Source: Octopus vulgaris
Taxonomy: Eukaryota
Direction of reading: 5' to 3'
Length of the DNA: 64,000 bases
Assembly: GCA_951406725.2 (NCBI GenBank)
Contig: OX597818.1
Coordinates: 95,604,001-95,668,000 of the forward strand
Numbering within the stretch: the first letter of the stretch is position 1; the number at the start of each line of letters is the position of its first letter. Positions 24,401 to 64,000 of the stretch are shown here, piece by piece. Position numbers and translations under genes: made by a program. The notes beneath the pieces are model-generated. The model saw only the letters and a list, made by a program, of their open reading frames with translations. It searched no databases and had not been told where the DNA came from.

Positions 24401-27400
24401 TTTTAAAAATACCACATGACACAATAAGACACACACATATTTATATATAGACACATGCATACACACACACACATATACACATACATACACATGTGTGTAT
24501 ATATATATTCACCTGTATATGTGTATATATACACAATATCTATCTATCTCTATATATATATATATATAAAATATATACATATATACAAAACACACACATA
24601 CAATGGGTTTCTTTCAGTTTACAAAATCCACTCGCAAGGTTTTGGTTTACCCAGGGATACAGTAAAAGACATTCACCCAAGCTGCCATGCAGTGGGACAG
24701 AAACTGAAACCATATGGTTGGGAAGCAAGCTTCTTAACCACACAACCACGCCTGCACCTAAAATGACAGCACTGAAATAATAGCTGCATTAGTTATGCAG
24801 TGTAGTAACCATTGTAACATTTCCCTGACCTTTGTGGTAAATAACAAATGTTGTATCAACTTACTGTATATAAAGACTCTACTTGTAAAGACCGTTCTCT
24901 GATCTCAGCTGCCATTTTGAAAACTTGGGACTTTTCTTCTTCAAACAGTGACTTCTCTTTGTTCATTTTTTTCTGTTCTTTTTCCAACATCCTCTGTTCT
25001 GTCTCTAGAATCTCTTTCTGTTTGGCACGTTTTTCGTTTTCTTCAGAAAGGGCCTTCATTGTCACATCAAACTCAGTTTCAATCTGTAAGCAACAGCAAA
25101 AACAATCAACTATGTGTGTGTGCACACACACACAACACAAGAGGCTGATAATGAGAATATAATATTGTATTTTGTTAAAAATATGTTCACTCTATTAATG
25201 AGAGTGCCTGTTTTTTTTTGACTCATGGATTTTTATGCAACCCTCCCTCTCTCTAAGTGCATATATATATATATATATATATATGTATCATCATCATCAT
25301 CATTTAATGTCCATTTTCAATGCTGGCATGGGCTAAACAGTTTGACTTGAGGTGGTAAGCCAGAGAGTTGCACCAGCACCAGTCTGTTTTGGAATGGTTT
25401 CTGCAGCTGGACACCCTTCCTAACACCAACCACTCTAGAGAGTGTACTGGGTACCTTTAATGTGTCACCAACATGAGTGCCTTTTATGTATCACTGGCAT
25501 ACATGTCATCAGCATGGGTGTCTTTTACATAAAAATATATATATATATATATATAGGTGCAGGAGTGGCCTGTATGTATTATAGGCGCAGGAGTGGCTGT
25601 GTGGTAAGAAGCTTGCTTCCCAACCACTTGGTTCCCGGTTCAGTCCTACTGCGTGGCACCTTGGGCAAGTGTCTTCTGCTATAGCCTCGGGCTGACCAAA
25701 GCTTTGTGAGTGGATTTGGTAGACAGAAACTGAAAGAAGCTTGTCGTATATATATCTATATGTATATATATGTATGTATGTGTTTGTTGTTTGTGTCTGT
25801 CCCCCCACCAATGCTTGACAACTGATGCTGGTGTGTCTACATCCCCGTCACTTAGCAGTTCGGCAAAAAAAGAGACCGATAGAATAAGTACTAGGCTTAC
25901 AAAGAATAAGTCCTGGGGTCGATTTTATTTGACTAAAGGTGGTGCCCCAGCATGACCGCAGTCAAATGACTGAAACAAGTAAAAGAGTAAAGAGATATAT
26001 ATATATATATATAGAGAGTTTTCATCTAGAACTGGATACAAACCCACAAGGTTGGGCAACAGACTTCTTAACCACAGAGCCATATACAAGTAGATATATA
26101 AGAAAAATTTAAAGACAAAACAAGGAAATGTAGACAGTCAACATTACCACTTTACCTTGGCAGCCTTCACAATATTTTGATGTTCTCGTTCTTTCCACAA
26201 TTTCTGTGACACATCTGCTTGGATTTTCTCCTCAGCCAAAGCTCGTCGTTCCTCAACTAATTGTGTCATTAGTCTCTTCTGTTCTTCCAAAAGATCTTTC
26301 TATCATCAATAGAACAAACATATACAGAATTAGAGCCATATTTAACATCCATAACTGCAACCAACCATCACCAACGAGGAAGCTTGTATGCCAGAAATAG
26401 CAATTAAGTCTCACAAGCCACACCCAGTTGTCTTAAAAATGGAAAACACATCAGATAATGTAATCTTATATATATATATATATATATATTATGACTGAGT
26501 AAAAGATGGTCATATTTGGAGCATCTTTGATCATACATCTGTTAGTTCAGGACTGGCCTGAGGTTAGATAATAACCACCGTCCCAATCACCATTTTTCAA
26601 AATCACATCATCTTTTCATTTCCATCACTGCCACCATCATCATTATGACATTCATCTGTCCTCCAATCCACCACATCATACATAAATACATATACATCTG
26701 TACACAAGTTAGAGACATCCTAATTGAGAAATTTGATGAGAGAGAGGAGGAGCTACAGACTTGTGACATAGAGGGAATTCTTGAGGGACAGCTTGCTGAG
26801 TGCCACAGACCAAATGTGGTGGAATGATGCTGTACAGAGCCATTAGAGCAAAGAAACAGGCCTAAAAGAGTAGGGGTAGCAGAGAACAGTATCAGATAGC
26901 CAGAAGGGAAGCTAGGAGACAGGTATATCTAGCCAAAATAAAAAGTTTGCCTAGCAAAAAATAAGTTTTCCAGTATTCAGAAACATGAGCACCAAAGAAC
27001 TGAAGTGTTTTGGATTGCAAGACAATGTGCGAGAGAAAATTGTGATGTCATGGGAGAGAAATGTATCCACATGGATGATGGTGCACTTGCATCTAATGAT
27101 TTTGCAAAGAAAGAGGCTTGAAAATGCCATTATGAAAAACTGCTAAATGTAAAGAGTAAATGAGAGGAGGAAAGTCTGCCAAATGTTGACCCAATTGAGG
27201 AACCAGCTACCCGAATTGATAGTACCTTGGTAGATAAAGCAATTAAGGATGTGAAGACAAGGAAAGCTCCCAGCCCATCAGAAATCACTTCTGAGATGCT
27301 TAAAATATCTAACGGTATGGGTTATGGTCTAGTCACTCGCATTGTAAATCAGGTGGTTCATGAAGGAGTCACACCCAATGACTGGTGTAGCAGCATCATA

Positions 27401-30400
27401 GTCAACTGCTACAAAGGTAAAGGTGATGCCTTAGATAGAAATAATTATAGAGGTATCAAATTGTTGGATGAGGTGATGAAAGTTACAGAGTCATAGCCTG
27501 ACTAATTAGGGAGAGAGTTAGTCTAGATGAGATGCAGTTTGGTTTTGTGCCAGGGAGAAGCACAACTGATGCTATATTTCTGGTAAGGCAGCTGCAAGAG
27601 AAATACATAGCCAAAGATAAACCCTTTGGCAGGGTCCTCCAATCCCTTATCTGGTGGTCAATACAGAAACCAGGGATAGACAAGTGGTTGGTGAGAGCTG
27701 TACAAACCATGTACAGGGACACTATCAGTAAGGTGAGAGTTGGCAACGAGTACAGTGAAGAATTCAGGGTACGAGTAGGGGTTCACCAAGGATTGGTCCT
27801 CAGCCCCCTCTTGTTGAACATTGTCCTCCAGGCAATAACAGAGGAATTTAAGATAGGCTGCCCCTGGGGGCTCCTCTATGCTGAATACCTTGTCCTTGTA
27901 GCTGAATCACTACCACAACTAGAGAAGTTTTAGGTAAGGAAGCAAGGTCTAGAATTGAAGGGCCTTAGAGTTAACCTAGCAAAAAACAAAGTCTTAGTAA
28001 GTAAGAAGGCAGAAAAATTACAAATCTCTTCAGGTAGATGGTCCTGCTTGATCTGTGGAAAAGGCGTAGGTAGAAACTCCATAAGATACACCCAATGTAA
28101 GCTTTGGACACATAAAAGGTGCAGCAATATCAGAGGAAGGTTAAAGGGGAAAATAGCTTTTGTATGTAGAAGATGCACAAGTACAATAAACACTAAAAAT
28201 GCACAGAAAATAGACTCCATCAACTGCCAAGGGGATTAAGCTAGAGGTAGCAGATAGCTTCTGTTATCTAGGTGACCAAGTTAGTAGCAGAGGTGGATGC
28301 TCTGAGAGCATAGCTGTGAGAATAAGATTAGTCTGGGCAAAGTTCAGAGAGCATTTACCCCTGCTTGCAACAAAGGGCCTCTCTCTCAGATGGCAGTGAA
28401 ACATGAGCTGTGACAGCTGTGAAAGAAATGAAGCCAGTATGCTTCACTGGATGTGCAATGTCAGTGTGCATGTCCGTCAGAATGCAAGCATCTTGAGAAA
28501 AAAGTTGGGAATAAGAGGCATCAGATGTGGTGTGCACTGAGAGTTGACTGCACTGGTATAGTCATGTGATGCATATGGATGAGGACAGCTGTGTAAAGAA
28601 GTGCCAATCTCTAACTGTGGAGGGAACCTGTGGTAGAGGTAGACTCAGGAAGATATGGAACGAGGTAGTGAAGCATCATCTTTGAAGTTTAGGCTTCATG
28701 GAGGCAATGACTAGCAACCAAGACCTTTGGCAATGTGCTGTGCTTAAGAGGATCTGTCAAGGCAAGTGAAATCATAGTCGTGGCTGATGCTGGTATCATG
28801 TCACTGGCACTGTGCCAGTGGCACGTAAAAAACACCTTTTGAGCACTGGGCTTCACGGAGTGGCCGAGTTCCTTTCAAGTGTTTTGCCTCACAGAGGCAA
28901 CAACCGAGACATTATGTCATGCTTGAAAAGCAGACCCGTAAAGAGCACCTTATGTCATGCTTGAGAAGAAGACCTGTAAAAAGTACCTTTCGAGCGTTGG
29001 GCCTCACAAAGGCAAAGTGGCTGAGCTCTTTTCGAGTTTGGCCTCACGGAGGCAATGACCGAGACCTTTGGATTGTCAAGCTTGAGAAGAAGACCCATCA
29101 AGCCAAGCAAAACCGCAGTCATGGCAGATACTAGTGTCATGCATCCATGCCAGTGGCATGTAAAAGCACCCATTATGCTCTCGGAGTGGTTGACATTAGG
29201 AAGGGCATCCAACCATAGAAACCATGCCAAATCAGACTGGAGTCTGGTGCAGCCTTCCAGCTAGCCAACCCTGGTCAAACCATCTAACCCACAATGCCAG
29301 CATGGACAATGGACGTTAAATGATGATGATGTACACAAGTACATATATACATGCTGCTTTGTTATATTTCAGATTTGTCAAATAGTTAAAGTTCATATAT
29401 ATATTAACTATTTGACAAATCTGAAATATAACAAAGCAGCATCTTTCAAACATTATTTGGCTTTTTTACGTTCTGAGTTCATATTCTGCTGGAGTTAACT
29501 TTGACCCTTATCCATTCAGGACTAATAAGCTCAGCACTGGTGTCAATGTAATTGACTTACCATTTGCCTTTAAAATTGCTGACCTTGTGCCTAAAATTGA
29601 AACCATGGTGAGCTGGCAGAAGCATTTGCATTCTGACCAAAATGGTTAGTGGCGTTTTGTCTGTCTTTATGTTCTGAGTTCAAATTCTCTCAAGGTTGAG
29701 TTTGCCTTTGATACTTTTGAGATCAATGAAATAAATACCAGTCAAGCAATGGAGTTGATGTAATCGACTAGCTCCTTCCCCAAAATTTCAGACCTTGTGT
29801 CTATGATAGAAAAAAATTATTATTATTATTATCATCATCATAAAAGATGATGGACTATTAGACAAAATATCTTTTAGTATTTAGTTACATTAAAGAATTC
29901 AAATCCTGTCAAAGTTAATTTTGTTTCTTATTCTTCTGGGGTCAATAGAACAAGCTCCAGTCAAATCCTGGGTTTAATTTAACTAACTGTATACACTTTA
30001 TCCCAAATTTTGTGGCCTTGTGTCTATGTTAAGAACCAATATTTTCACCACATTTCACTACAATATATGTGTCTGTTGATTGACATACAACTAATTAAAA
30101 ATGTGTACTTACCCTGCATTTATCAAGACCAGCCTTCTCTCTGGCCTGCTCTTCTTCCCACAACCGTTTCTCAGCCTCAACAGATACCTGCAATGCCTGG
30201 TACTTGTTCACCTCTTGCTTCACTTTCCATTTCTCGTCCTCCAACAGCTGGGTCTGACTGTGAAGTTGACACTCCAGTCTTTCAATCAGGCCCTCCAGTC
30301 GTAGTCTCTCACGTCCATTTTCTTCCTGCTGCCTGTTCAACCTTACTTGCAACATCTTCAGCTGTTCATCACGGTTGCGCATTGACACTTCTCTCTCATC

Positions 30401-33865: not shown

Positions 33866-36800
33866 CGTACACACACACATCTATGTACACATATATACAC
33901 ACACATATGTATATACATCACCAGTCTCCAATCTTGATTTAGCTGTAGAAACTCTGCCAAATCAAGACTGGAGACTGGTGCAACCATCTGGTTTGCCAGC
34001 CCTCAGTCAAAATCGTCCAACCCATGCTAGCATGGAAAGCAGACGTTAAACGATGATGATGATGATACATATACACACACATGTATATATACATACATAC
34101 ACACACATACATACCATACACACATACGTATGTATGTATGTACATACATACATACATACATACAGGGTGCAGTGAAAATGTGTTCTAAATTACACAAAAA
34201 TGAAAATAACACTGACATCTCATTTTAACAGATATATTTACCAAAATTACATTAAAATTTCTTGAAATACTAAAGATTAAATTTATTCAATAAAATCAAC
34301 ATTGGCTTCAACCACGGCCTCCATATGACTTTAGAATCTCCTGCAACTCTTCTGGACAGTCTCCTTGTTGGTGAATGTTGCCATAATCCTTGCCTTCAGT
34401 TCATCTTTAGTGTTACAAGGAGTTTTGTTGGTCTCTTGTTCAACTGCACCCCAACACATAATAATCAAGAGGGTTGCAGTCTGGGGAGTTAGGTGGCCAG
34501 ATGTTAGGGGTGATGTGGTTGCAGAAATTGTCTGAGAGCCATGACTAGGTTCTCCTGCTTGTGTAGCATGGTGCAGAGTCCTGTTGTCACTTGATGTAAG
34601 CCTCTGTGTTAAATCTGAGGCTATGTGGGAAGATGAATGGAGGCATAACATCATCACTAGTGATCACTCCAAACACCATGATGTTGAGTGGATGTTTGAT
34701 TTTCATCACTCTTGGTACATGTTTTGGGGACATGGCAAGCCAATGGTTGTTCTGTGTGTTCACCATCTGTTTGTATTGGAGCTTCCAGCGTGAATGTCAA
34801 GCAGTACAGCATGTTGTTTCCAAATTTCTGGCAGAGTGAATTATGTCATGGTGCTGTTTTTCTCACAAACGGTGCCCAACTGACCCTACTATACTGCAGA
34901 CAGATATATTGACAGATATTAATCAAGTTTCTTCTATATCTTTGCCTTTTGGAATCTGATTCTGAAGGAATGTTTTTGTGAACTAGCATGTCTTTTAAGT
35001 CCAGATACTGTCTTACAAGTTTTGTGACATATAACACAAGTCCTAAGAGTCAGTTGGTGTCCAAGATCATTACCTACCCGGGCATTTCGATTTTCATGTG
35101 ACTTCATATGATACACATATCCTGCTTTTGATAACAGAACATGATCATATATAATAGCCCTATTAAGCTCAGAGTGCTGAATCCTCTTTTCCTCCCAGGC
35201 ATTGCAACCAGTCCTAACAGCACCTCTCCATTTGTTCCGATCTAGAACATCCTTTTCCCAATCACTTTTGTTCATATCTAGTTTCTTCAGGTTTTCCTTC
35301 ACAGTCTTTATACATGCATACATACTCACACATATATACACACACACATATATACATACATACATACATATAAACATACATATATATATATATATCAGTG
35401 GCGTGCGGTGACTTCCGGCGTTGGGCATGCAATTAATTTCATTGCCCCCCCGGCAATTTTTCAGTAAAACATTTTCGTATTCCTACGATTTACATATAAG
35501 AGATTCTGAATATGCAGAATAAACAGGGAATAAAAAATGGCTGTGCAGAGATGATCCTGAAATAAGTGTATTGTTTGTATTATTCTTTGCTCTTCGAAAC
35601 GTCAGTACTTTCCCATCCTCATTCTCCCTTAGAAAAGTCTAAAAATCATAAGTGAAATGTAATAAAGATGAAATTGGATTCTGTCAATATTTTTGCATAT
35701 TCAGAATCTCTGTTAAAGGTAGGAATCCGAAAAAAATTTTCACATAAATTCGTTTTTCAAAGGGGTGCGATTCTGCATTAGCCCCTATACCTATCAGTTG
35801 AGCTGAATGAAATGATTTAATTAAAAGAACACATTTAGTTACATTATATGGCCATGGTTTTAGATCGTTACGCTCTCGAAGACAAGTCAGGTTCTTTATC
35901 ATGCTACTTGTCAATTCCGGGAAAATTATTGACTGTTCTGAGACTTACTGAACTCCGTACATTAAAGGACTACGTCTCACGCACAAACATTGAAAATACA
36001 CACATATACATGAATACGCACACAATGAAAGACAGCGAAAATTCAACATTGTAAAAAGCCTCCCAAAACTGTTGTGGCAGAAGTCAACATCTCTGAGATT
36101 GAAAAAAGACACTTATTGAAAGTGAAACAAAACACTTATTTATGGCCGTAAATAGACTACACCCAGCAGCACAGAAAGGGAAATCTATGTAGGTAGGTTT
36201 CACGAAGAAATCAAAACATTTCTCCTGCGAAACAATACTGATGTAAGAAGGTCGAACCTTACGTTATAACAAACACTAAGCAAAACCTGTAATATATGCT
36301 CTTTAATATATATTTTTTTTAATGTTTTAAAATGTTACTTAGCTCATTTATAAATTAATTCAATTCTTCGATCTTTCTGGGCAAATATATCTATCACATT
36401 TTCATAGAAATCTTCTCTTTTCATCAATTCTTGTAATAAATCTTTTTCAATTGACATTAGTGCTAACCCAGACAGTCTTCTTTCTCCTGTCGCATTTCTT
36501 TGGTATGTTTTAATTCTACTTAATGCAGAAAAGGATCGCTCTACAGAAGCAGTGGTAGACGGAATTGTCAAAATCAACTTGCACAGATTAAAGAGTTCTG
36601 GCATAGCTTCAACAAGATCAGTGCTGTTAATGTAACTCATTAAATGACTTACACTTGGTTTTTTAAAATCTTTCATTGAATACATCACATTGAGCTCACT
36701 TTGTAATCGTATTACATCAAAAAATCTGCCATAAGTTGTTCTTAAAGAATCTAAAGAGTCCACAGGAAATTGTTTGCAATACTCATCAACTTTGTTGAAA

Positions 36801-39190
36801 TTCAAAAGTTCCATGAATTTAAACTCTTCTAAGGATGAATATCGTGCTTTTATTTGGTCAACTATCGTACTTATAATTTTGTTATAAAGCGTTCTATAAT
36901 GTCGTTGGGGATCAATAGATATATTCTTGGATCTCTGAATTCCGATTCCTGCATCGACTCCATATTTTTCCCCTAACCTATCATAAAAGACTGAAAAATT
37001 ATCAAGTTTGTTTTCGAGTACAGTTCTAGTTTTATCTATTTGCTGTTTACAATACACTATGTCATGACTTTTACTCTGGAGTATGTTAAATAAGACGTCA
37101 GTAAAAGAAAAAATGTCACTGAATACCTCTAACAAAAATAAGAAATCAGGAGCTTTTAAAGTGTGTAAGAATCCAATTGCTGAATTTATGGTGGTCTCAT
37201 CCCATGCTTCAGGATTTTCAATGATGTGTTCAAAAAGGCTGATTATGAAATTATAATTTTCCTTTGTGGTAATAATAAGACGTGAGGAGTAATTCCATCT
37301 AGTTGCTGTTGCTTTCGGAAATCTTTTTTTAACAATATTATCTAATGCATTAGTCCTTTTCGGTGATTTCGTAAAAAATGTACCGAGTCCATTTATTGTA
37401 GAAAAAAATATCTTGCATTCTTTCATAGCAGAGCATGATTGTGAAAGAACTAAATTTAGGATATGGGCACAACAATGAATAAAGATCGCACATTCATATT
37501 TCTTTCTTACTTTTGCCTGTAACCCATTTAGTTGTCCTGCCATTGTAGCGGCACCATCATATGTCTGCGCAATCAATTTGTTTCCACATTCCCACGTCTC
37601 AATGCATTTAAAAACATGTTCAGATAAAGCATTTGCAGATCGATCTGCACTAACATCACTAAAACCGATAAATCGTTCTTTCGTCACACAGTCTTCTGTA
37701 ACATAACGTAAAACTGTTGACAGTTGTGAAGATGCTGAGACATCAGATGTCTCATCAACAAGAATAGAAACAAACTTAGCTTGGTCAATTTCCTTCTGCA
37801 TCTCATTCAACATAACTTTATGAATTGCTTCGATCAAGTCATTTTGAACTCTGTTCGACAGACCAGTGAAGATAGAAGCTGTATCTAAATGACTTTCCAT
37901 TTGTTTGTCATACTTACTGATCAAATAAACGAGTTCTTTATAATTTCCCCGATTATTAGAGCCTTCAGATTCAAAATGACCCCGAAACGATAATTCCTGG
38001 AGGCCTAAAAAAATAACAACATCGATCAATCATTGCAGAATGGATCTGTTTCGTCGAACTTTCTCATTATGCTGTTGTATGCTTTGATTTTTACGTGCAT
38101 CTAATTGTAAGTCTATGCGAACATTCCCGAATATTTTAAGGTCTATCAAACATTTTATATGCCTTTGAGAACGCTCGTGCTTTAGCATAGCCATATGTAA
38201 ATTATTTAAATCATCATAGCCTTTATCATTCCAAACATTTTTTTCTAAGCCAAAAAGTAAACACGGCCAACAGAATAATTTATTAAGAGCAACACTTCCA
38301 GTTAACCATTTCTTCTTTTCATACGAATTAACCTGAAATTGTCTCGTGAATTTCTTGTTGTAGCTTCGCAAATTAGGTAAATTCGGTGTTGGTCTCCCGC
38401 GATTTATAATTAATTTTTTCCCATCGAAGTCCCTTTTAGAAAAACTAGTTCTCAAAATATCGTTTATAGCACACATTTCACTCATTTTGAAAAAGGCTGC
38501 TCTTATTTAAGGACCCACGTGGAAGCGCCGGCGTAAATTTTAAGTCAATTTCAACAAAACGGAAAAATACCCTTTGTTAAATTAATTTAAGATTAATTAG
38601 CTATTTCTGAAATAAGAAATATAATGTAGATATTTTTGCTTTCAAAACTTTCTAAAAATATGATAGTGCAAACGGATGTTTTGGATAACAAATTTCAAAC
38701 TTACATGCGAAGGCTATTCCAACATTTCAGCTGGCTAAAACAAGAATTATGGGACGGCTCTTGTTCCGGTCAAAATAGCCAGAGAGGCGTGATATGCGAT
38801 CTAAGCACAGCATGACACGCCAAACTGAATTTGTCGAATCGCTGAGAGAGAAGGGGGTGACCATTCCTCGTAGTATATCTTTTAAACAAAGAAAGAGGGA
38901 GAAGGGACAAACTATCAAAGACAGAGAGAAGGGACTCATGCTGTCTTCCCAACGCATGACAAGCGATAAATTTATCGAGTCACTAAGATAGAGAGAGAGA
39001 GAGAGAGAGAGAAGGAAGGACAAACTAATACAGACAGAGAGGGAGTGTGTATCATGCGATCTTCTAAAAGCATTTATCAAAGCAGATGTACGAAGTGGAG
39101 ACAATATTTCTAAAACAACTGGACGTATTTTCTTTGAAACAAGGAAGGCATGCAGCGCATACCTTGCATTGCTGAGAGTGCACGCCCCTG

Positions 39191-39221
<31 letters not shown>

Positions 39222-42061
39222 CATATGTACACAGACATATACACACATATACATACACACATACACATGTACATGCACACATACATACACACACATATAC
39301 ACATACACTCACACACACACACACACGAAGCCTGGTTCAGCCTTCTGGCTTGCCAGACCTCAGTCAAACCATCCAACCCATACCAGCATGGAAAGCGGAT
39401 GTTAAATGACAATGATGACCATGATGATGATATAGTTGAAAGAGTCCATACAAATCAAAAAATATGGTTAAAAATGTAAATAAATTTGGAAAAAGCACAA
39501 AAGTATATTTTAGAGACAGTTTAATATTTTTGTTACAGCAAGTGATTTAAAATATAACTGGTTTCGATGTGCTTATCTTATCAAATATTAAAAAGACTTT
39601 TTTAGGAAGTCAAAAAGAAAAAAAATTAGGGGTTAACAGTTTGTACCATAAAATCATTAAATATACAAGAGATAGATCTTGCTCTGGACAGGTTACTAGG
39701 AGAAACTGAATCCCATATTACAAGCTTACAAATCACTTGTATCTGCTGCTGCTGTTTCCTACAGGAATGGTTTATACTAGCCAACAGTATCTATTTATGA
39801 CTATGACAACCCTGTAGGAGATACTTAGAGCTAGGTCAAGTGAACTTTTCAGAGCTTAATGCCTTGACAACAGACACAAGCTGATGGCAACAAGCTATCA
39901 TTATTGTGTTTGTATTCAGTTACCAATACAGTTTATCATTTATTCCAGTATGCCATCAACTCAACCATCTAAACTCAGTGCAATAATAAAAGCTTTGTTC
40001 AGCTTCAGTTTAACATCCACTTTCCCATGATAGCATGGGTCAGTAGGAATTCATTGAAGCTAATTTTCTATTGTCTGGTGCTGTTCCTGTTGCTAACTAA
40101 ACCAGTTTGCAAGCAAGATAATATTTCACCATTACCAGACACGTTTCCACATAAGGTTGGATGCAAATAACACCACTTGTGTGGTGGTGATGCTCACTTA
40201 CAATTAACATGTGATGTTAAGAGAAGGACACATTAACTCTGACACACACACACACATATACAATGAGCTTCTTTTAGTTTCCTTCTACCAAATCTACTCA
40301 CTCACAAGGCATTGGTTGGCCTGGGGGGTGGATATAATAGAAGACATTTGTTCAAAGTGCCATACAGTGGGACTGAACACAAAATCACACAGTTGGGAAG
40401 CAAGCTTCTCAACTACACAGTCATAACCCACGCCTATATTTATAAAATAACCAAGCATTTACCGTTATTTCCTCAGGTTTTTCTTGGACTGTATTATGTT
40501 GAAAAAAAAAGGGTTCAGATTTTGATAAGGCACTTGATTTCTCCAGGCCCCCACTTGGTTGAATGGTTGGTTCTGATTTAGTTAAAACACTCGATTTTCC
40601 TTGGACGGCACTTGCTTTTGGGGTGATGTTAAATTCAAAACTTTCATCAGACTTCGATTTTTCAACTTTCCCAGGGGTTTCTGTCTTAAGTGGAAGAACA
40701 TCTTTAAGAGTCAAACTTGGTTTAGCTGGGTGAGAGATCTCGGTTTTGAGCGATTCATTTAATTCAGTATCAGTTGTGGACTTCTTAATTCCTAACCAGT
40801 CATCATCATCATCATCATCATCTAAAACAATTTCTTTACTCTTCTTTTCTTCTACTGTTGGTTTCGTTGTCTTCTTTGTTTCATGAGATGTGGAAGATTT
40901 TACTGAGCTCTTTTCTTTACTTATTCCCATTAACCAATCAAAGGTATCATCATCATCATCGTTAATATCATCCAGAGATGTCTTTAGAAAGGACCCTCTT
41001 CGTTTAGATGAATTATCTGACAACAGGGAAGATTTACTTTCACTTTTATCAAGCACTCTATCAATGAGACAAAGAAAATTGGAAATATAACAACAACATA
41101 AACAATAATTGCTTCTAACATAGGTACAAGGCCTAAAATGTGGATCTTGTTGGAGTGTGGGGTAGATAGCTGATTACATTGATCCCAGTAACTAACTAGT
41201 ACTTACCCTGGAGGGATGAAAGGCAAAGTTGATCCCAGCTGAATTTGAATTCAGAACCTAAAGTACTGGTACAAATGCTGCAAGATATTTTTTCTTGTAC
41301 TCTAATGATTCTGCTGGCCCACCATCTTAACAACAAAGATGGCTTTCAATAGTACTGGTGCTACATAAAGCACTCTGTACGAAAAGTGATTGGTAATCAA
41401 TTCAAGCTGTGACAATAAAGAGCCTGAGAAGGCTCTTTAGGCTTACTGATGGCAAGGTGACCTCTATAGTGTTGGTACCAAGAAAAAAATGTACCTGATA
41501 CATTCTGTAAAATGGTTGGTGTTAGGAAGGGGATCCAGCCTTAGAAACCATGCAAAAAAAACAAAAAACATTTGAGCAAGATGTGGATCTCCAATCCATT
41601 GAGTCTTGTTAAACCATCCTACCTATGCCAAAATGGGAATTTTAAGGAAAATAACTGCAATGAATAGGTGTTTTGTCTATGGGAAGATTTATGTTTCATC
41701 CGTCAATTACCATAGAATCAGAGCTAAGAAATGGCTCTGAAAGGTCCTTTGGACTTCATCTACAAAGATACTTTCATTTCATTGCACAACTGCAAGGCTT
41801 GTAGTGCAAGATGTTTTATAAAGGTCATGATGATAAGATGAAAGTGATAACGAAAGTAGTAATAATGATGATGACAAGTACTACATAATCCAGTGTGACT
41901 TTTTGTTTCATTTTTTAAGATAGTATTGTTTGGATCAATGTGGCTGCTATTTCTAGTTTGGTTAATTTAAGATGTAGAGGCTACATCATGGGCTCAAGTG
42001 ATGTTGCTGTTATTGATAACAATGACAATGGTGGTAATGATAATGATGAAAGTTGTGTCAT

Positions 42062-42092
<31 letters not shown>

Positions 42093-45000
42093 AGAGAGAG
42101 AGCAGAGCAATCAATGTGGCTCACCTTCCGCTCCTTGTAGTTGATAATGAGGATGATGATGCAGCGACAGAAGGTACATATGAGCCAAAAACGGCGTCTT
42201 CTTCCTTGTTCTTTCCCTGCTCTGATGCTGGCAGTAATAATGAGAGAACATTAATATAATAGGCCAGCCTTAATGAGAAAACATTAATATTATTGCAGTG
42301 TTGGAAGGTGTTTATAAGCCGTTTAAGAAAAACACAAAATCCGTTAGATTCACTTCAACATTTAATTTGTCAAAATATTTTTGTCGCTTTGAGACCACAA
42401 CCTGTTCATTGAGAAAATTCTGTGATGCAGCATGGAATTTTCTCAGTGAACAGGTCGTGATCTCAAAGCGATGGAAATATTTTGACAAATTAAATTTAAA
42501 TGTTGAAGTGAACCTAACGGATTTTGTGTTTTTCTTAAATGGCTTATAAACACCTTCCACACTGCAATTGTTTTCATTCCAGCACACGATCTCAGATCAG
42601 GTCACTTGCTATGCAAGTACATCTCTGTAATTAATATTATTATTATTTTAATATTGTTAAGGCAGCAAACTAGCAGTCGTTTCCATTGTGTATAAGTGAC
42701 TTAGATCACTGTATTCCCCTGAATAGGACACCAGTCTGTCACAGGGTTATTCATTTACAGTTGAGTGGACTGGAAACAAAGTGTTTTACACTAGTACATA
42801 ACACACCACCCAGTCCAGGAATCAAAACCATGATCTTGTTTGCGATCCTGAATGCAACACCCTAACCACTGGGCTATGTGCCTTCACCAAGATGTAAGGA
42901 GGTGAAACAAATACTGCAAAGTATTTTGATCAACATTCTAATGAATTTGAACAACAACAATATCCCACCCCTATCTCACTATCCTCTTATCAGTAAGGTT
43001 GATAAGAAATCTAAGCAATAGCAATTAACTGCTAATAAAGCATTGATTACTGTTGTTCAAGCTAGCAGAATAAAAGATAATTATACACAAACTTACAATT
43101 AGTAACATGTTTACCCTTCAAAAGATCATCAACCAGGGATTTTTTGTCTTTAGAACCGCCAAAAGTTTCAGTTGGGGAAGATCTTCCAAAAAGATAATCA
43201 AGATTAGATTTTGAAGATTGAGTATTTTCTTGTGGACTGTCATTTAGACCAAGCTCATCAAATATATCATCTTCATTGTTAAATGTCACAGCCTTTTTGG
43301 TAGCAGGTCCTGGAAAAGTTAAAAAAAAAAAAAATGTTTACTGGATATTTCAATTATTGTTGCATGAACTGAATTAGTTGAATACTAACCAAATACTTGT
43401 TGGTATAAAATACACTCGAAAATTAGTAACCCTTGTAGTGTATTCCCTTGATTTTAGGGGCTGAGCTCCAGCTTTTGCTGTTAATACTGTTGATCCAACT
43501 GGATCAGTTGTCAAATTTATTAATTTTCAGAGATTGTTTGAGAAGTTGTGGATTCTACCGTACTATGGTACACAAAGACAGTTAAAATTTCAGTACATCA
43601 GATGTAATCTACTTAAGTATATTTCTAAATATCTAAGACAAAAATACAAAACTAAAGTCATCTGCATACAGTATCTCCATTAATAGTACCTCTCTTGCAC
43701 TCTCCGTCACCACATCAACCACTATTGCACACAATAATGGTGACAACACAGATCCCTGATGCACACCAACCTTCACCGCAAACTCCTCCGACTGCTCTGA
43801 TCCAATTGTCACTCTTGTCTTTACCCCCTCATACAAACTCATCACTGCTCTCACTATTACCTCTAGTACACCTCTCTTCCTCAATGCCCACTCAATCACC
43901 TCCCTTGGAACCCTATCAAATGCCTTCTCCAGATGAACGAAGTACATGTACAACTCCTTCCCCTTATCTCGGTATTCCTCCTGCAATCTCCTTGCAATGA
44001 ACACTGCATCTATTGTCCCCCTGCCTGGCATAAAACGAAATTGCATCTCATCCACATCCACCCCTTTCTGAATTCTCTTCTCCAACACCCCTTCCACTAT
44101 CTTCATTGCATGCTCCAATAACTTCACTCCTCTATATGCCCCACAACTCATTGCATCCCCCTTCCCATTGAAGATCGGTACCACCACACTTAGTGCCCAA
44201 TCATCTGGCATTTCTCTTCCATCAAGCATGCCCTGTCAGAACTCCATCATCACAACAATCCCTATCTCTCCACTTGCAGTTATCATTTCCACACTTACTT
44301 CTGATGGACCAGCTGCCTCTCCTGTTTTCATTTCCTTCATTGCCTCCACTACTTCTTCCTGACTAACCCTCTCCACTGGCACCCTTTACCACAGTAACTT
44401 CCATCCTCTGATCCCATTCATACTCCTCATTCATAAATCCCTACATATGTTCCTTCCAAACTCTTCCCCTGTCCTTCTCACTAAAATTCAACCTTCCATC
44501 ATTCCCACTCACACATCTTCCTCCCTCAACATCTCTTCCATCATTTTTCATTGATTTAATAAACCTAAACACCCTATCTGGGTTCTCATTAAGCCTGCAC
44601 AACCTCTCCTAAGCCTCTTTCCTCATAGATCTCACAACCACCCTCTTTGCATGATTTGCTCAGTCCTATAATTACATAAAGCTTTGTGTGCCTCCTTTTT
44701 CCTCGCTATTGCATCCCTCACCTCCTCATTCCACCACCACATATTTCTTTGATCTCTCCTACCCTTTGTCCTTCCACACATTTCATCACATACCTTTAGT
44801 ACCCCTTCTTTAAAAGACTTCCACAAAGCCGGTGCATCAATGCTTACCAACTCCCCAACTCTCTCCTCAAACCTTGCTCTTGTTTCTTCTTCCTTCAGTT
44901 TCCACACCTTTCCCCTCTCAACCATTCCCTTTCTCACACGTTTTTTAACTTTCCTTTTATTCAAGTCAGCAACCACCAACCTGTGCTCCAACTCCCTTGG

Positions 45001-45799
45001 TATTGCCTTCATATCTCTCAGATATTTTCTTTTTTGTCTGCCAACCGACACGAAATCAATCTCTATTTCATCCCCTCCTGTGCTGAAAGTCACCTTCCTT
45101 TTCTGTTTTCCTAAACCATGTATTTGCCACACACAACTCTTTCTCATCACAAAACTCCAACAGGATCCTTCCTTCCATATTTCTCTCCCCAATTCCATTT
45201 TCCCCATGTACAGTCTCAAAGCCCTGGATCCATTTCCCAACATGTCCATTAAAATCACCCATGCCCCAAACCAATTCATCTACCTTTTAAGTCCCACTCA
45301 TTCGCCATTTCATCAAAGAACTGCTCTTTCTCAGTGATCCCTCTTCCATTTTCTGTGGACCATACCCACAAATTACCCTTACCACTTCTTCCTCAAATGC
45401 TAACGCTACTGTTGTGACTCTGTCACTCTTTCTCCTTACCTCCACCACCTTCTCACAGATTTCTTCCTTCACTAAAACTCCCACACCTCCAGTTCCCCTG
45501 CTATTTCCTGACCACAATGCAGTTTATATTTCTTGCTTAGGGTTCTACTAGCTGTTATAATAAAATAGCGAGATCATTACCTCGCATGGAAACAGGTGTG
45601 GCCTGCCACCAGGAAGGGTATCCTGGACATAGAAACCTGTCCCAACAGGCGTGTCTGTGTGGTTAAGAAGTTTTCTTCCCACACAGTTTCTGGTTCAGTT
45701 CCACTATTTGGCACTATGGGTGAGAGTCTTCTACTATAGCCTAGGGCTGACAAAAGCCTTGTGAGTAGATTTGGTAGATGGAAGCTGAAGGAAGCCCTT

Positions 45800-46086: not shown

Positions 46087-49000
46087 TGTATGTATGTATG
46101 TATGTATGTATGTATGTATGTATGTATGTATGTATGTATGTACAACAAAGATAAATGTATGTATGTTTAGGGTTAAGCTGAGTATCAACTTTTATAGACT
46201 TAGAAAATGAAGGACCACTATGTATGTAGTGTATGTATGTATGTATGTATGTATGTATGTATGTATGTATGTATGTATGTATGTATGTATGTATGTATGT
46301 ATGTATGTATGTATGTATGTATGTATGTATGTATGTATGTATGTATGTATGTATGTATGTATGTATGTATGTATGTATGTATGTATGTATGTATGTATGT
46401 ATGTATGTATGTATGTATGTATGTATGTATGTATGTATGTATGTATGTATGTATGTATGTATGTATGTATGTATGTATGTATGTATGTATGTATGTATGT
46501 ATGTATGTATGTATGTATGTATGTATGTATGTATGTATGTATGTATGTATGTATGTATGTATGTATGTATGTATGTATGTATGTATGTATGTATGTATGT
46601 ATGTATGTATGTATGTATGTATGTATGTATGTATGTATGTATGTATGTATGTATGTATGTATGTATGTATGTATGTATGTATGTATGTATGTATGTATGT
46701 ATGTATGTATGTATGTATGTATGTATGTATGTATGTATGTATGTATGTATGTATGTATGTATGTATGTATGTATGTATGTATGTATGTATGTATGTATGT
46801 ATGTATGTATGTATGTATGTATGTATGTATGTATGTATGTATGTATGTATGTATGTATGTATGTATGTATGTATGTATGTATGTATGTATGTATGTATGT
46901 ATGTATGTATGTATGTATGTATGTATGTATGTATGTATGTATGTATGTATGTATGTATGTATGTATGTATGTATGTATGTATGTATGTATGTATGTATGT
47001 ATGTATGTATGTATGTATGTATGTATGTATGTATGTATGTATGTAGTGGTTGTATGTATAGCAATAACACTGTCCCAGACGTGGGGTTAGTACTGCAATG
47101 TGGGTCAACTCATGCTTTGTTGAAGATCACCATCCCCATTTTCCTGATTTGGCCCCATCTGACAATGATCTGTTCCCAACATGAAAAAACACTTAGCTGG
47201 GAACCATTATCATAGTGATAATGACATCATATCTGTTGTTGATAACTTTTTTGAGCAACAGGATGAAAGCTTCTTCACCAATGTGATCCAAGCACTGCAG
47301 CACCAATGGAAGTGTGTGGACCACAAAGAGATAATGCTGAAAAATAAATTTCATTTGGTCATATTCTATGAGAGTATCTTGGCCTGCCTATGAGCTTTTC
47401 ATATATTTATTTTCTTTTATTGAGTTGATCTTTCAGCATAAATGATTAGTAACATTATGCTTAGTAAATACACTGGACTTGTTGAGCCTGAATGTCAGTG
47501 AAAATAGTGCCTGTCTAATTAGGCAATAAACATATAAGTTTGCTCAATGAATTAAAAATCATTTACTTCTTCATGGACGTGATGAGACTGAGACATCTGG
47601 TGATTTGCTGTACTTGAGAAGACATGACAAGTGATATCATGGTTGTGGCCAGTGATAGTGTAATTGAAGGAATCTAATTTGTGGTGTTAGGAAAAAAACT
47701 TATACCGTTTCCATATACACACTCACACGTGTACACATGTGCAAAAAAATGATAAAAAAGAAAACAACTTCGAAAGTGATTTACATTTTGATTCTTGATT
47801 CTTCAATGTTGAAGCTGTTTTTGGTGGTTCATCATTTGTCTGTTGTGTTGCTTCTTGATCTTGGCTCCCATCTCTGCTAGGAGGATGGTGGGACTCTGAA
47901 GTACCTGCTGAACTTGATTTCTGTGGTGCCTTGCTGTCAGAGTCTTTCTTCCGCCCACCAAATAGATCTGCATCCATGTCATCCAAATCCTACAATAAAT
48001 AAATAACCATCTTGAAAACAACTTTGTTTTACCTTATTACAAAGACCTAGAATCTGTAATGTTCAGGGTTAGATAGCTACAAGGCTAAGAGACTTGATAC
48101 TTTCGTTTGATACTAACTGTTTGTATAATGGATTGGAAAACTTTGTGGTTAAGGAGTTGAATAGCTCTAAAGCTAAGGCATTTGAGGGGTTGGGCAACTG
48201 TACTATTTCAGTTTCATGGTTGAGTGTTGTTAGGTGGCTATCCATCCCTAAAACTGTTCCAATAATTCATGAAAATGAGCAAATTTGTGATGAAAAAGAT
48301 AGACATAAAAAAATTTATGCATTTGTCTCCATCATTTTCCAAAAGTTTAACCAAAACATACTAAGGAAAATAATGTACTTAAGTTAAAAATAACATCTGT
48401 TCTTAGATTTTAACTTCTTACCATTTGGTTTGGCAGTCTAACATTGTAACCTTCAAGCTATATGACCAGACTGATGTAATAGTAATTTTTCTTCTAAATT
48501 TCCAAGAATGAGTGTTAAATGTTTCACTCATCAAAAGCTATCACAACCATAGTAAAGATAAGATGGTAACAGTTATATGTATCAAAGATTCAATATTTTG
48601 ATTTATTACCCCTGTATCAAACCTCTACTTTAGCAGAATTGACTGAGGCTACTCTATAACACTACCAAATTTGGGTATGCGGGTAATTTGAAAATATCTT
48701 ATGGAGTGATGACTGTCCCATGCATAGTAACAGGCAGCCCTTTGGCAAGGTATAGCACCCATTCAGCCACCCTGCCAAGGATATGTCGAAGTCATGGGAC
48801 TGCAGCATAGTGGATTGTGAAGTGGTAGTGGAAAAGCTCAATTGAGCCAATGGTGCTTCTTACATTGATGCTGAGCGAAGAAATCCTAGAAGATTAATGG
48901 TCAGGATCATCAAGCTCTATCAAGAGCTTGAAGCTCTGCAAAGCATTCATGGTTGTGTAATCACTTTGACCCAAGCTTCCAATTCAAATTCATAATGGAA

Positions 49001-56605: not shown

Positions 56606-56740
56606 ATGACTGAAAAAGTAAAAAGATGTCATCCCAAAGCCTATGTTGATAAAACTTTAGCTATCATTAAACCAGAAGCTGTGAAATATGCTGATGTTAT
56701 AGAAGATATTATTCTACGGACAGGTTTCACTATTGTCAAT
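56606..56740 (+). CDS. NME5: Nucleoside diphosphate kinase homolog 5, first coding exon
   Basis: MTEKVKRCHPKAYVDKTLAIIKPEAVKYADVIEDIILRTGFTIVN|gtaagt matches the NME5 N-terminal pattern YVEKTLAIIKP..IILRSGFTIV. Confidence 0.92.
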
Positions 56741-58954: not shown

Positions 58955-59160
58955 AGACGCCGTGTTCACATGACACCAGAACAAGCCAGCGACTTCTATA
59001 GCGAACATTTTGGTAAGATGTTCTTCACCAAACTGGTGGAATATATGAGCCAGGGACCCATTATCTGCCTTATAATAGCAAGGGACAATGCTATCACCAC
59101 TTGGGAGGAGCTGATGGGGCCTACAAATACATTCAATGCACGAGAAACCTATCCAGACAG
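58955..59160 (+). CDS. NME5: NME5 second coding exon; remaining exons lie beyond the window
   Basis: tttcag|AGA CGC CGT...GAC AG|gtagaa. RRRVHMTPEQASDFYSEHFGKMFFTKLVEYMSQGPII...LMGPTNTFNARETYPD. GKMFF is characteristic of NME5. Confidence 0.93.
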
Positions 59161-59915: not shown

Positions 59916-61243
59916 TTTGTTGTTGCTGGCACAATCATTAGCATGCTGGACAAAATGCTGCTAAGCATCTTTGTGTTCTAAGTTCAAATTCCACCAAGGT
60001 TGACTTTGCCTTTCATCCCTTTGGGGTCAATGAAATAAGTGTCAATCAAGCACTGGGTTCGATGTAATTGACTTACCCCTCCCCCAAAATTTCAGGCCTT
60101 GTGCCTATAATAGAAAGGATTATTATTATTATTATTAATTTTATTATCATTTGTTGTTGGATTTTGACAAGAAAGTCACATTTCATGGTGGCTCAGTCAA
60201 TTTTCTGAAAATGTCATCATTTTTGCTTGCCTGAAAATTTACCCTTACTGTTTCCTATTGTGAATTGCACTGTAGAGTTCACCCACATCTCTTTGGTGTG
60301 ATTTTCCTTTTTGCCTGACTCACCCTTTCAAAGGAATCATCTATTTCAAATTTGGGTTATCTAAACTTCATAATTCCTTTAAAATATATCTGTACCAAGA
60401 GAGTTGATATATACATAAAAAAAATAAAATGAATTCATAGTAATTAAGAGCCCAATTAATAACGTTGTTGAACTCCAATGTTATTACATTGCAGTAAATC
60501 GAAATAGAATCAACTTCTATCTATATATATAATCAGCTAAAACAATCTTTTACCACAACATATTTAGAATAAAAAGCAGAAAAGCATAAATTTCACATAT
60601 ATCATCATCGTTTAACGTCCGCTTTCCATGTTAGCATGGGTTGGACGATTTGACTGAGGTCTGGCGAATCAGATGGCTGCACCAGACTCCAATCTGATCT
60701 GGCAGAGTTTCTACAGCTGGATGTCCTTCCTTAATGATATAATTATACTCAACAACTGTTTCATTAGCATGAGCATCATTAAATCCATAATTACAGAGTT
60801 AAGATACATAATTAATTTATGTAAATTAAATTAATTTAAAAGCAATGTTTACACAGATCATCAGCAGTACTACATAATGCTTTAGGTAAACATTACTTTC
60901 AAATTCATTTAAAATAAATTAATTATATGTCTTGGTTGCATAATCATGAAATTAATGATATTTATGCTGCCGAAACAACTATTGAGCAAAATTAAATGAT
61001 GAACTATGTATGAAATTTATGCTTTTCTGCTTCTTATTTTAAATATGAATATTACATTTCTAAATATCTCAAAGAGATATAAGCAGTGGTGGTACGATAG
61101 AGTAGTTGTATACTGTCAACTTAATGTGACAGTCCCATGAAGGGAATCGCACCACTGTTATTTAGCCCTAGGAAGCATCATATTTCCTGTTTCCTTATAT
61201 TTACAAGGGGGAGACAAGTACCCCCACCCAGCAAAGCCTGCAA

Positions 61244-61284
61244 CCAGAGACTAGTTTCTGAGTATTTGCTCATCATCAGTCTGG
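61244..61284 (-). ncRNA. Minimal type-I hammerhead ribozyme (canonical core), antisense copy
   Basis: - strand: ccaga-CTGATGA-tgag-caaata-ctca-GAAA-ctag-TC-tctgg. Confidence 0.85.
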
Positions 61285-61531
61285 AGTAGCATGGCCTGCT
61301 AGCTGGAGATGCCTGTCTAGCCCTTGTAAACATATAAGAATTCTAGTGAAATAAATCCACTGATTACAAAAATAGAAATATTACATTTCTAAATATCTCA
61401 GAGAGATATAAGTAGTAGTGGTATGATAGAGTAGTTGTATTCTGTCAACCTAATGTGACAGTCCCATGAAGGGAATGACAGCACTGCTATTTAGCCCTAA
61501 AAAGCATCTCCAGCTAGCAGGCCATGCTACT

Positions 61532-61572
61532 CCAGACTGATGACGAGCAAAGACTCAGAAACTAGTCTCTGG
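61532..61572 (+). ncRNA. Minimal type-I hammerhead ribozyme (canonical core)
   Basis: ccaga-CTGATGA-c-gag-caaaga-ctc-a-GAAA-ctag-TC-tctgg. Palindromic ACTAGT stem III. Predicted cleavage after GUC at 61567. Confidence 0.85.
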
Positions 61573-64000
61573 ATGCAGGCTTAGCTGGGTGGGGGTGCTT
61601 GTCTCCCCTTTGTAAACATAAGGACACAGGAAATGTGTCAAGGCCAACAGGAAGCATTGATGCTTCCTAGGGCTAAATATATAGCAGTGGTGTGATTCCC
61701 TTCATGGGACTGTCACATTAAGTTGACAGTATACAACTACTCTATTTTAAATATGTTTATTAATAAAAAGAAAAAAACAACAGAGATCCTCATGAAAAGA
61801 ATAATAATGTTCATGGAGAAAAGTGAGATAGAGGAAGTGAATAAGAAAAGAGACATTAGACGTGAAGAAAAAATGCCAAGAAAGTGGGGCTTACACACTC
61901 ACACACATACATACACATATATATTATCATACACATATATATTATTATCATCATTTCTTTCTCATAACAATTGAAATTATTGGACTCTTCCACAAACCTT
62001 TCTTATCAACAAATTGTTGCTAATGGAAACCATCACCAGATTTTGCCTTGTCAATTAAATCAGCTCTTACGCAAGACCTTATAAAAACCTATTCTTCTTA
62101 ACAATAGTATCATAGTTACTCTTGCTGCTGCTGTTGCTGCTGCTGCTGTTGTTGTTGTTGTTGTTGTTTAACTCCAGTTTAGTATTGATTTAATTGCAGG
62201 TTGAGAGTTGATCGACCAACAATGCCCATTGTTCTATATTGACTTTTCAGTATTCAGCTGATGAACCAGCTGTGACCATCCCATTTTTATTCAGGTTTAG
62301 TGTATATAGAAATATTTAATCCATGTGTTCTTGAATTTTTTTTAAGACAATAGGCTGTGATTTAAGGGAGGTTAAGGGACCAACTACAAGCTCTGTTAAC
62401 GATCTCATGTTGTGGTTTGGTCCTTGGTCAGCTCTACATGTTCCAGCTGTGATCTTTCTCTCTTTATTTAGATATAGTGTGTCTTGGACCACATTAAAAA
62501 AAATAGTAGGATGTCATTTGAAGGAGATTTGGTTTCTATTTCTAACAGATATTGGCTGTGTAGTTAAGAAGCTTGTTTCCCAACCATGTTGTTCTGAGTT
62601 CAGTCTGACTGTGTGGCTCCTTGGGCAAGTGTTCTCTATTATAACCTCAAGGTGACCAAAGCCTTGTGAATGGGTTCAGCAGATGGAAAAGGAAAGACGC
62701 CCATCATTTGTGTGGCACCATCACCAGCAGGGCCACCAAGTAACTTGCAAGGCAAGGAATTTTCAGGGTGGTGCCCCAGCATGACTGCAGTCTAGTGACT
62801 GAAACAAATAAAAGATAGACTTTTCAATGCTTGCACAGGTCAGACTGTATTTGGAGGCAGATATTCTACAGCTGGATGTCCTTCCTGTTGCCAACCCTTA
62901 CCTGTTTCCAAATATGGTAATGTTTCTGCATAGCCAGACATATTTTGTGAAAGACTGGAAATGAACAGCATCAAATCTACACTGTGAAATGGTTGGCATT
63001 TTGAACAGCATCCAGCTATAAAAACCATGCCAAAACTGACCTCACCTGTGCTGGTGCCATGTGAAAAGCACTCAATCCACTCTACAGAGTGGTTGGTGTT
63101 AGAAAGGGCATTCAACTGTAAAAAACCATACCAAAACAGACACAGAAGTCTGGTGTAGTCTTCTATCTGGCCAGCCCCTGTCAAACCACCCAACCCATGC
63201 CAGTATGGAAGATGATTAAATGATGATATGATAATGATGATGATGATGTATATATATATACACACACACACACACACATATACACACATGTCCATATAGT
63301 TGTATATATATATGTATGTGTGTGTGTGTTTGTATATCCTTGTTTGCCATCATGTGATGATTGTAAACAAGCATCACTGTCATACAAGTGATGTTGTTTG
63401 TTTCCAGTCTTCTACAAAATATATGTCTGGCCATGGGGAAATACAACCTTCTTTGGAACCAGGTGAGGGTTGGTAACAGCTGTAGAATATCTGCCTCAGT
63501 AAATTTTGTCTGACTTGTGCAAGCATTGAAAAGTGGATCTTTTATCTTTTACTTGTTTCAGTCATTAGACTGTGGCCATGCTGGGGTACCACCCTGAAAA
63601 ACTTTTAGTTCAATGAGTTGACCTCAGTACTATTTTTTTTAAAGCCTGGTATTTATTCTATTGTTCCCTTTTGCCAAACTTCTAAGTTATAGGGATGTAA
63701 ACACACCAATGCTGGTTGTCAAGCAGTGGTGGTGGGGAACATATACACACACACACACAACAGGCATCTTTTAGTTTCTGTCTACCAAATCCACTCACAA
63801 GGCTTTGGTCAGCCCAAGGCTAAGTAGAAGTTACTTGCCCAAGCTGCCACGCAGTGGGACTGAACCCAGAACCATGTAATTGAAAAGCAAGCCTTTTATC
63901 ATGCAGCCATGTCTGCACCATGCCTGAATGTTAAAAAAATGATGATGAGTGTAATTTCGTGATGGTTTAGCCATTGCCTCACCAAACCTCCTTTTGTTTT

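Follow-up and report, generated by a model that had tools for sequence, protein, structure and literature searches.

A non-coding hammerhead repeat with the insertion anatomy of Penelope-like elements in intron 2 of the Octopus vulgaris NME5 gene

Small non-coding repeats with type-I hammerhead ribozymes, the non-long-terminal-repeat (non-LTR) retrozymes, have been described in metazoans, including the 350-390-bp repeats of mussels and the axolotl repeats with HHR_Amex1/2 (Cervera and de la Pena 2020, PMC7229834). More recently, animal retrozymes have been proposed to be non-autonomous derivatives of Penelope-like elements (PLEs; Li, Clavereau and Pollet 2026, bioRxiv 10.64898/2026.07.22.740005). 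As far as the accessible part of that preprint goes, no mollusc is sampled and the case is argued through co-occurrence and the phylogeny of the pseudo-long-terminal repeats (pLTRs) of PLEs, not through the anatomy of insertions; in Xenopus, 42-44% of the copies are intronic, and no cleavage was obtained with 8 of the 9 dimers tested. Insertions of PLEs, in the available portions of two further reports, show partial tandems, an inverted 5′-truncated copy at the 5′ end and a tail of 30-40 bp at one end (Craig et al. 2021, PMC8557442), where the tail is the stretch between two internal start sites of the reverse transcriptase (RT) and RNA that has escaped cleavage serves as the chief template (Frangieh et al. 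2024, PMC11167929). Here, a 64-kb window of the Octopus vulgaris genome (contig OX597818.1, positions 95,604,001 to 95,668,000, numbered below from its first letter) was analysed as a whole, in which intron 2 of the gene NME5 carries a 695-bp insertion with one type-I hammerhead on each strand. With a probability of about 0.8, the insertion is an aged copy of a non-coding repeat with a hammerhead, present in high copy number and classed as a non-LTR retrozyme with units of some 350 nucleotides (nt); it was likely written by a Penelope-type machinery from both cut strands, and its sense ribozyme is predicted to be silent.

The 695 bp form a single unit bracketed by exact 13-bp target-site duplications (TSDs), the left one AT-rich (61035..61047, + strand) and the right one at 61743..61755 (+), whose first 3 nt also match the end of the element; none of 400 random AT-rich 46-mers shared 13 bp with the TSD flank. 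Between both duplications, a long arm of 461 nt (61048..61508, − strand) points left and holds 1.4 tandem monomers as a direct repeat with a period of 329, whereas a short inverted arm of 239 nt (61504..61742, +) corresponds to 0.7 monomer, is 5′-truncated and tail-less, and aligns to 61312-61097 (−) with 91% column identity. The arms meet head to head, and their coordinates overlap in a 5-nt microhomology at 61504..61508. One monomer (61048..61376, −) is 329 nt long, non-coding and 40% GC, and it lacks 22 nt found in the other arm at 61637-61658, which bring the full unit to about 351 nt; 61626-61658 is one of the most deeply covered stretches of the element. The insert contains no stop-free frame of 60 codons and, having no long frame, also lacks an open reading frame (ORF) for RT plus GIY-YIG. 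The sequence-only reading of this locus had described a rearranged unit with five blocks, A-B′-A-B-A′. A repeat finder recovered the repeats on which that layout was built (134-nt inverted arms at 93%, a 139-nt direct repeat at 90% with a spacing of 329, and a 68-nt inverted A copy), whereas the 13-bp TSD, the 329-nt tandem period and the one-sided tail had been overlooked. This tail, of about 49-52 nt (61048..61096, −), terminates the left arm and has no counterpart in the right one, as given by a three-way alignment of the A copies. The pattern is thus better read as one insertion made of a tandem minus-strand arm and a head-to-head inverted 0.7 copy, and the term rearranged is not supported, inverted 5′-truncated arms being an ordinary product of Penelope-type insertion in the accessible text of PMC8557442. 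On the other hand, the earlier assignment to a Penelope- or retrozyme-type element is supported by the tandem unit, the TSD, the head-to-head arms and the one-sided tail, all of which, together with the family-wide conservation of the core, are seen directly. Sibling segments diverge from 2.5% over 80 nt up to 9.1% over 132 nt, which indicates that the copy is not recent. Next to the insertion, a 43-nt inverted repeat (91%, 60559-60601 / 61005-61047), which belongs to an older element rich in AT, terminates at the left TSD; the sequence that follows the partner copy agrees with the right flank over 2 nt, which lends weak support to a reading as an empty site.

The octopus element is a further non-LTR retrozyme of an already known kind. 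Its features lie within those of the class, which comprise a non-coding tandem unit of 170-400 nt, GC below 50%, one type-I hammerhead per unit, a high copy number and a TSD longer than 4 bp. As in the metazoan retrozymes of PMC7229834, to judge from its accessible part, the tandem unit has about 330-350 nt with GC around 40%, the type-I hammerhead has a weak palindromic helix III, the TSD exceeds 4 bp and the copy number is very high, whereas the cephalopod host and the position of the hammerhead at the tip of a 150-nt rod are peculiar to the octopus repeat, known here from its sequence. The inverted arm and the tail are not among the retrozyme features described in that part of the source, and they match, together with the partial tandem, the 5′ truncation of the inverted copy, the AT-rich target and the putative use of uncleaved RNA as template, what the available portions of PMC8557442 and PMC11167929 report for PLEs. 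With 1.4 units and one complete hammerhead per strand, as against the two consecutive complete units required of an active retrozyme copy in the accessible text of Li et al., the locus is a truncated copy and not an active source. No description of an octopus retrozyme was found among the papers listed for the open literature, a search outside which lay subscription papers, repeat databases and supplements.

This anatomy would be the outcome of the following pathway. A Penelope-type RT-endonuclease would nick both strands of the AT-rich site with a spacing of 13 bp, and each 3′ end would prime on RNA of the family at one of two fixed starts about 50 nt apart. One strand would then copy 461 nt, past one unit, through an uncut hammerhead and across the seam between monomers; since a complementary DNA (cDNA) of this length exceeds one unit and holds an uncut hammerhead, the template would have been either a circle or an uncleaved multimer. 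The other strand would copy 239 nt, and both cDNAs would join at the 5-nt microhomology. In tandem transcripts of the family, hammerheads would cut as dimers through their ACUAGU palindrome and release monomers, whereas at the NME5 locus the antisense arm would always be made before the hammerhead and would zip with it into a long duplex.

The family was surveyed in contigs of public sequencing runs, four of them DNA or unlabelled, of which 33 contigs out of about 16,000 were listed and which carry no strand, end or circle information. In all four runs, depth over the element is far above that of its flanks, reaching in run X3 190,000-226,000 over the ribozyme versus 57-66 in the flanks, a rough sign and not a copy number, by which the repeat family would number thousands of copies. 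Over the spacer that precedes the rod, depth in X3 is 35,000-43,000, so that the ribozyme is covered about 5 times more deeply. The monomer seam is spanned by 7 of the 33 listed contigs, from all four DNA runs, with at least 31 letters on each side; these contigs differ by 11-31 letters, which places the seam at other loci and makes the tandem unit a property of the family. Similarly, contigs of run X1 depart into dissimilar flanks around two points, 61374 (14 contigs, agreement 0.5) and 61745 (15 contigs, agreement 0.54), indicating that the ends of both arms are shared with other loci. At 61305-61314, the starting point of the short arm in the NME5 insertion, many copies of the family stop or turn into inverted sequence, and the loose ends at 61305-61336 suggest a subfamily with a different, still complementary rod base. 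As for the NME5 insertion itself, its presence in the sampled animals is only suggested; the contigs at both junctions enter the element by just 26-30 letters, below the 31-letter rule. No RNA run was listed among those that contain the sequence. Three runs guessed to be RNA contain family sequence (76, 63 and 10 contigs), none of it tied to the NME5 locus, which is not evidence of transcription. A>G or T>C changes at 61230, 61256 and 61301, which have a higher share in two of these three runs, were rejected as signs of editing, being present in 1-2 contigs each, where divergent contigs carry other types of change.

A descriptor scan for type-I hammerheads over both strands of the window gave exactly two motifs and no further copies, with CUGAUGA at 61537-61543 (+) and 61279-61273 (−) and C17 on opposite strands at 61567 (+) and 61249 (−). 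Both have the CUGANGA / GAAA / NUH core and are closed by stem I. Across 60 dinucleotide-shuffled windows, the scan gave a mean of 0.08 matches, with one match in 5/60 and two in 0/60, and the two real motifs, which are copies of one repeat, were scored against them as one event. The scan thus bears out the two type-I cores on opposite strands of the sequence-only reading, as well as its GUC with C17 at 61567, its ACUAGU palindrome and its extended stem I. A search with the Rfam hammerhead models, likewise proposed there, gave no match to any hammerhead family in two scans (E up to 5 and up to 10), so that the assignment rests on the descriptor and on the conservation in the family. Rfam matches to microRNAs and small nucleolar RNAs were discarded, as they are far under the gathering score and come from the inverted repeat or from microsatellites. 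The hammerhead antisense to NME5 (61243..61291, −) has a 5-bp stem I, a 4-bp helix II closed by U-A, a hexaloop, the ACUAGU helix III and C17 at 61249, and it departs from the family majority by private changes at 61243, 61264 and 61219. The sense hammerhead (61525..61577, +) has a 6-bp stem I followed by a UAC/U internal loop, a hexaloop, the ACUAGU helix III and a predicted cut after C61567. The cores had been called intact, which holds for their motifs but not for helix II of the sense copy, whose base is a C.A mismatch that leaves 3 bp only. Stem I does extend, yet far beyond the short bulged extension first proposed, since both hammerheads sit at the top of rods that measure about 105-150 nt. 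The rod hairpin of the antisense copy (61191..61340, −) is about 150 nt long, ends in the hammerhead and has a minimum free energy (MFE) of −76.3 kcal/mol; compared with shuffles, both hammerhead rods are more stable (z −3.3 and −4.4), the rod at 61175-61320 (z = −4.4) being equalled by 0/200 shuffles.

Lack of conservation among genomic copies had been named, together with absent cleavage at GUC-61567, as what would speak against these ribozymes, and for conservation the opposite was found. In X3, the core and helix III are invariant: over core, helix III and inner stem I, 0/27 positions vary at 8% or more versus 18/74 neighbours, in a count that omits two variants near the edge of the stretch present in another listing, and changes within the core amount to 0.03-0.7%, with a maximum of 7.5% at the edge of stem I. 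On the contrary, the pair closing helix II is polymorphic in the family (10.1 is U in 58, C in 35 and A in 7%; 11.1 is U in 57 and A in 43%) and usually mismatched, with a Watson-Crick closure in the antisense copy (U-A) and none in the sense one (C.A). The matching frequencies suggest U.U and C.A subfamilies, linkage being not visible. Decay of the NME5 copy was rejected as the origin of the C.A mismatch, which is a common state of the family. This feature parallels the axolotl HHR_Amex2, reported in the accessible part of PMC7229834 with U.U at the base of helix II, whose monomer cleaves 22% in an hour and its dimer better. Furthermore, two loops are similar to the CAAAUA and UCCA:GUAC of the Schistosoma ribozyme (PMC2632901), namely the hexaloop 2 CAANNA and the UAC/U internal loop that follows 6 bp of stem I. 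The exact CAAAUA loop of the antisense copy was set aside as a link to that ribozyme, as it is a private change, with another base at 61264 in 92% of the family. The hammerheads of pLTRs, in the available text of PMC6155905, usually lack helix III and the loops of full-length type, whereas the octopus hammerhead keeps helix III and has loops that resemble the full-length, Schistosoma-type layout; the motif may therefore not be of the minimal pLTR type. From the minimal hammerhead with palindromic helix III first proposed, the palindrome is confirmed, whereas the word minimal is doubtful.

The intronic location of the element, also noticed from the letters, was confirmed with the NME5 of Octopus sinensis (207 amino acids). 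The first coding exon (56606..56740, +) is 100% identical to its residues 1-45, and coding exon 2 (58955..59160, +), found by tblastn with the same protein, has NME5 as its best PDB matches (E 6e-22) and is 100% identical over a 67-amino-acid query. Residues 1-113 are thus placed on two exons, whereas residues 113-207 gave no 6-residue match in any frame of the whole window, which rules out an alternative exon 3 ahead of the element and puts the insertion in intron 2, with NME5 sense on the + strand, 1.9 kb downstream of exon 2 and at least 2.2 kb before exon 3.

In the predicted fold of the transcript (at equilibrium, 37 °C), the sense hammerhead finds little room to form. Alone, its best monomer fold pairs the core with the strand of the cleavage site, whereas two sense copies co-folded form a double hammerhead with a 6-bp helix III (−27.0 versus 2 × −11.3 kcal/mol), in agreement with the dimer requirement that was predicted earlier from helix III. 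With only one copy per strand, the sense ribozyme is, in these models, weak even without the antisense arm. In the presence of this arm, the probability of stem I in the whole-unit fold drops from 0.75 to 0.000, and the full transcript shows 128 pairs between the B arms and 211 in all. The predicted duplex in the pre-mRNA has about 211 bp, instead of the 130 bp first proposed. At each of three transcript lengths, nearly all of the sense arm pairs with the antisense one, and the hammerhead register would cost 61-63 kcal/mol relative to the MFE; the minus-strand copy is predicted to be blocked likewise when antisense transcription reads through. Folding thus favours the suggestion of the sequence-only reading that the upstream antisense arm pairs with the sense ribozyme and sequesters it. 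Its idea of a built-in off switch finds no such support, as the block is predicted to be constitutive with a gap of that size. Predicted to be buried in a 211-bp duplex and having no dimer partner in cis, the sense ribozyme is likely silent in NME5 pre-mRNA, and the block looks like a by-product of the insertion geometry, needing no selection.

Alternatively, the insert could be the mere stump of an autonomous PLE, that is, a pLTR region with its hammerhead and no independent non-coding retrozyme cycle behind it. Its layout is indeed the typical one of PLE insertions, mostly 5′-truncated in the accessible text of PMC8557442, many family contigs stop at 61305-61336, and Xenopus retrozymes are described as homologous to pLTRs in the available part of bioRxiv 10.64898/2026.07.22.740005. 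What makes this explanation unlikely is that, upstream of the rod, a 42-nt spacer is followed by the tail of the previous unit and not by the end of an ORF, that the seam appears in other copies in all four DNA runs, with the spacer itself deeply covered in X3, and that the insert is devoid of a stop-free frame of 60 codons. A stepwise origin, through a single-armed insertion followed by a local inversion or duplication, or through two separate insertions, would account for the uneven divergence of the three A copies and for the 22-nt deletion confined to one arm, and it is nonetheless very improbable, because a single 13-bp TSD brackets the entire 695 bp and both outer ends match recurrent ends of the family.

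The possibility that the sense hammerhead regulates NME5, by cutting intron 2 co-transcriptionally under the control of an antisense arm, perhaps loosened by ADAR, that switches it off or on, deserves no more credit. The motif lies in sense orientation within a real intron, with at least 2.2 kb left to transcribe before exon 3, and its core is intact. RNA editing is heavy in octopus, and the predicted 211-bp duplex would be a plausible ADAR substrate. Fast intronic ribozymes can impair splicing, with the Cpeb3 ribozyme as a precedent, although slow ones are reported to leave it unaffected (Fong et al. 2009 as cited in PMC10919898, in its accessible portion). Against regulation, the gap of 61-63 kcal/mol would take many edits to close, the single helix III palindrome per strand allows no dimer in cis, in the free monomer the core is paired to the strand that holds the cleavage site, helix II has C.A at its base, and the arms have drifted 7% apart in a layout which is explicable without selection. 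Like the domesticated intronic ribozymes (the amniote RECK/CTCL hammerheads, PMC6155905, and Cpeb3, PMC10919898), the octopus locus has a sense self-cleaving motif in an intron; in the available text of these sources, however, the domesticated ones are single-copy and conserved across species, whereas the octopus motif, predicted to be blocked, belongs to a mobile family with copies in the thousands. The insertion is therefore likely a tolerated passenger and not a regulator.

Several observations weigh against a retrozyme written by a Penelope-type machinery, or at least weaken the case for it. No autonomous Penelope partner was seen, the insert having no RT/GIY-YIG ORF in contrast with PLE insertions, and its tail of 49-52 nt exceeds the 30-40 bp reported for PLEs in the accessible part of the literature. 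Judging by depth, most family copies are likely shorter than one unit, and tandem arrays may not be the rule. The uneven divergence of sibling segments can be put down to chance or gene conversion, yet the use of more than one template would explain it as well. The contrast in conservation between ribozyme and neighbours (Fisher p 0.003) is overstated, because the variable sites mostly mark two subfamilies and are not independent, and because 61285-61295, outside the core, is equally invariant. Family variants support the rod only in part: of 20 tested, 9 preserve or add a base pair, 8 disrupt one and 3 fall on unpaired positions, the linkage of the two sides being not visible. Finally, all the folding consists of equilibrium predictions.

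The NME5 locus itself is probably a neutral passenger, and its value is that of one more clean example of animal retrozyme movement. The full insertion signature of Penelope on a non-coding unit with a hammerhead offers anatomical support for the route that was proposed from co-occurrence and phylogeny. A further, rather speculative idea is that the head-to-head insertion of Penelope type silences its own ribozymes, given that the antisense arm precedes the hammerhead on either transcribed strand, and that the inverted arm would be a built-in licence to colonise genes. If this doubtful proposal were true, two-armed copies with both arms reaching the ribozyme would be harmless in introns, single-armed sense copies would be purged, and thousands of long double-stranded RNA editing substrates would be seeded in octopus pre-mRNAs.

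With respect to other sequences, viral contigs gave 0 matches, and a pattern scan of metagenomes gave 3 distinct loci that have in common with the octopus repeat the hammerhead alone and represent another element family. Their hammerheads (L001:634-667, L002:319-351 and 1046-1078, L003:770-802) have stem I and the ACUAGU helix III as in octopus, but a helix II closed by G-C, and the contigs are 68-87% alike in patches. The repeat period is 1021 nt in L001 and 727 nt in L002, and no stop-free frame in L001-L003 exceeds 113 amino acids; they may form a family of their own, made of larger retrozymes or circular RNAs. Elsewhere in the octopus window, a nearly complete long interspersed nuclear element, presumably RTE-like, occupies 16310-19154 (+), with endonuclease and RT frames broken by frameshifts; relatives in a state of decay lie at 27164-28239 and 43633-45279. 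Transposase-like frames of 158 and 561 amino acids, which we take to be hAT-like, lie with one stop between them at 36344-38506 (−). Finally, the exons of a coiled-coil protein gene that presumably resembles FBF1 extend over 22579-47989 (−), running away from NME5, and a four-base microsatellite of about 900 bp is found at 46200-47090.

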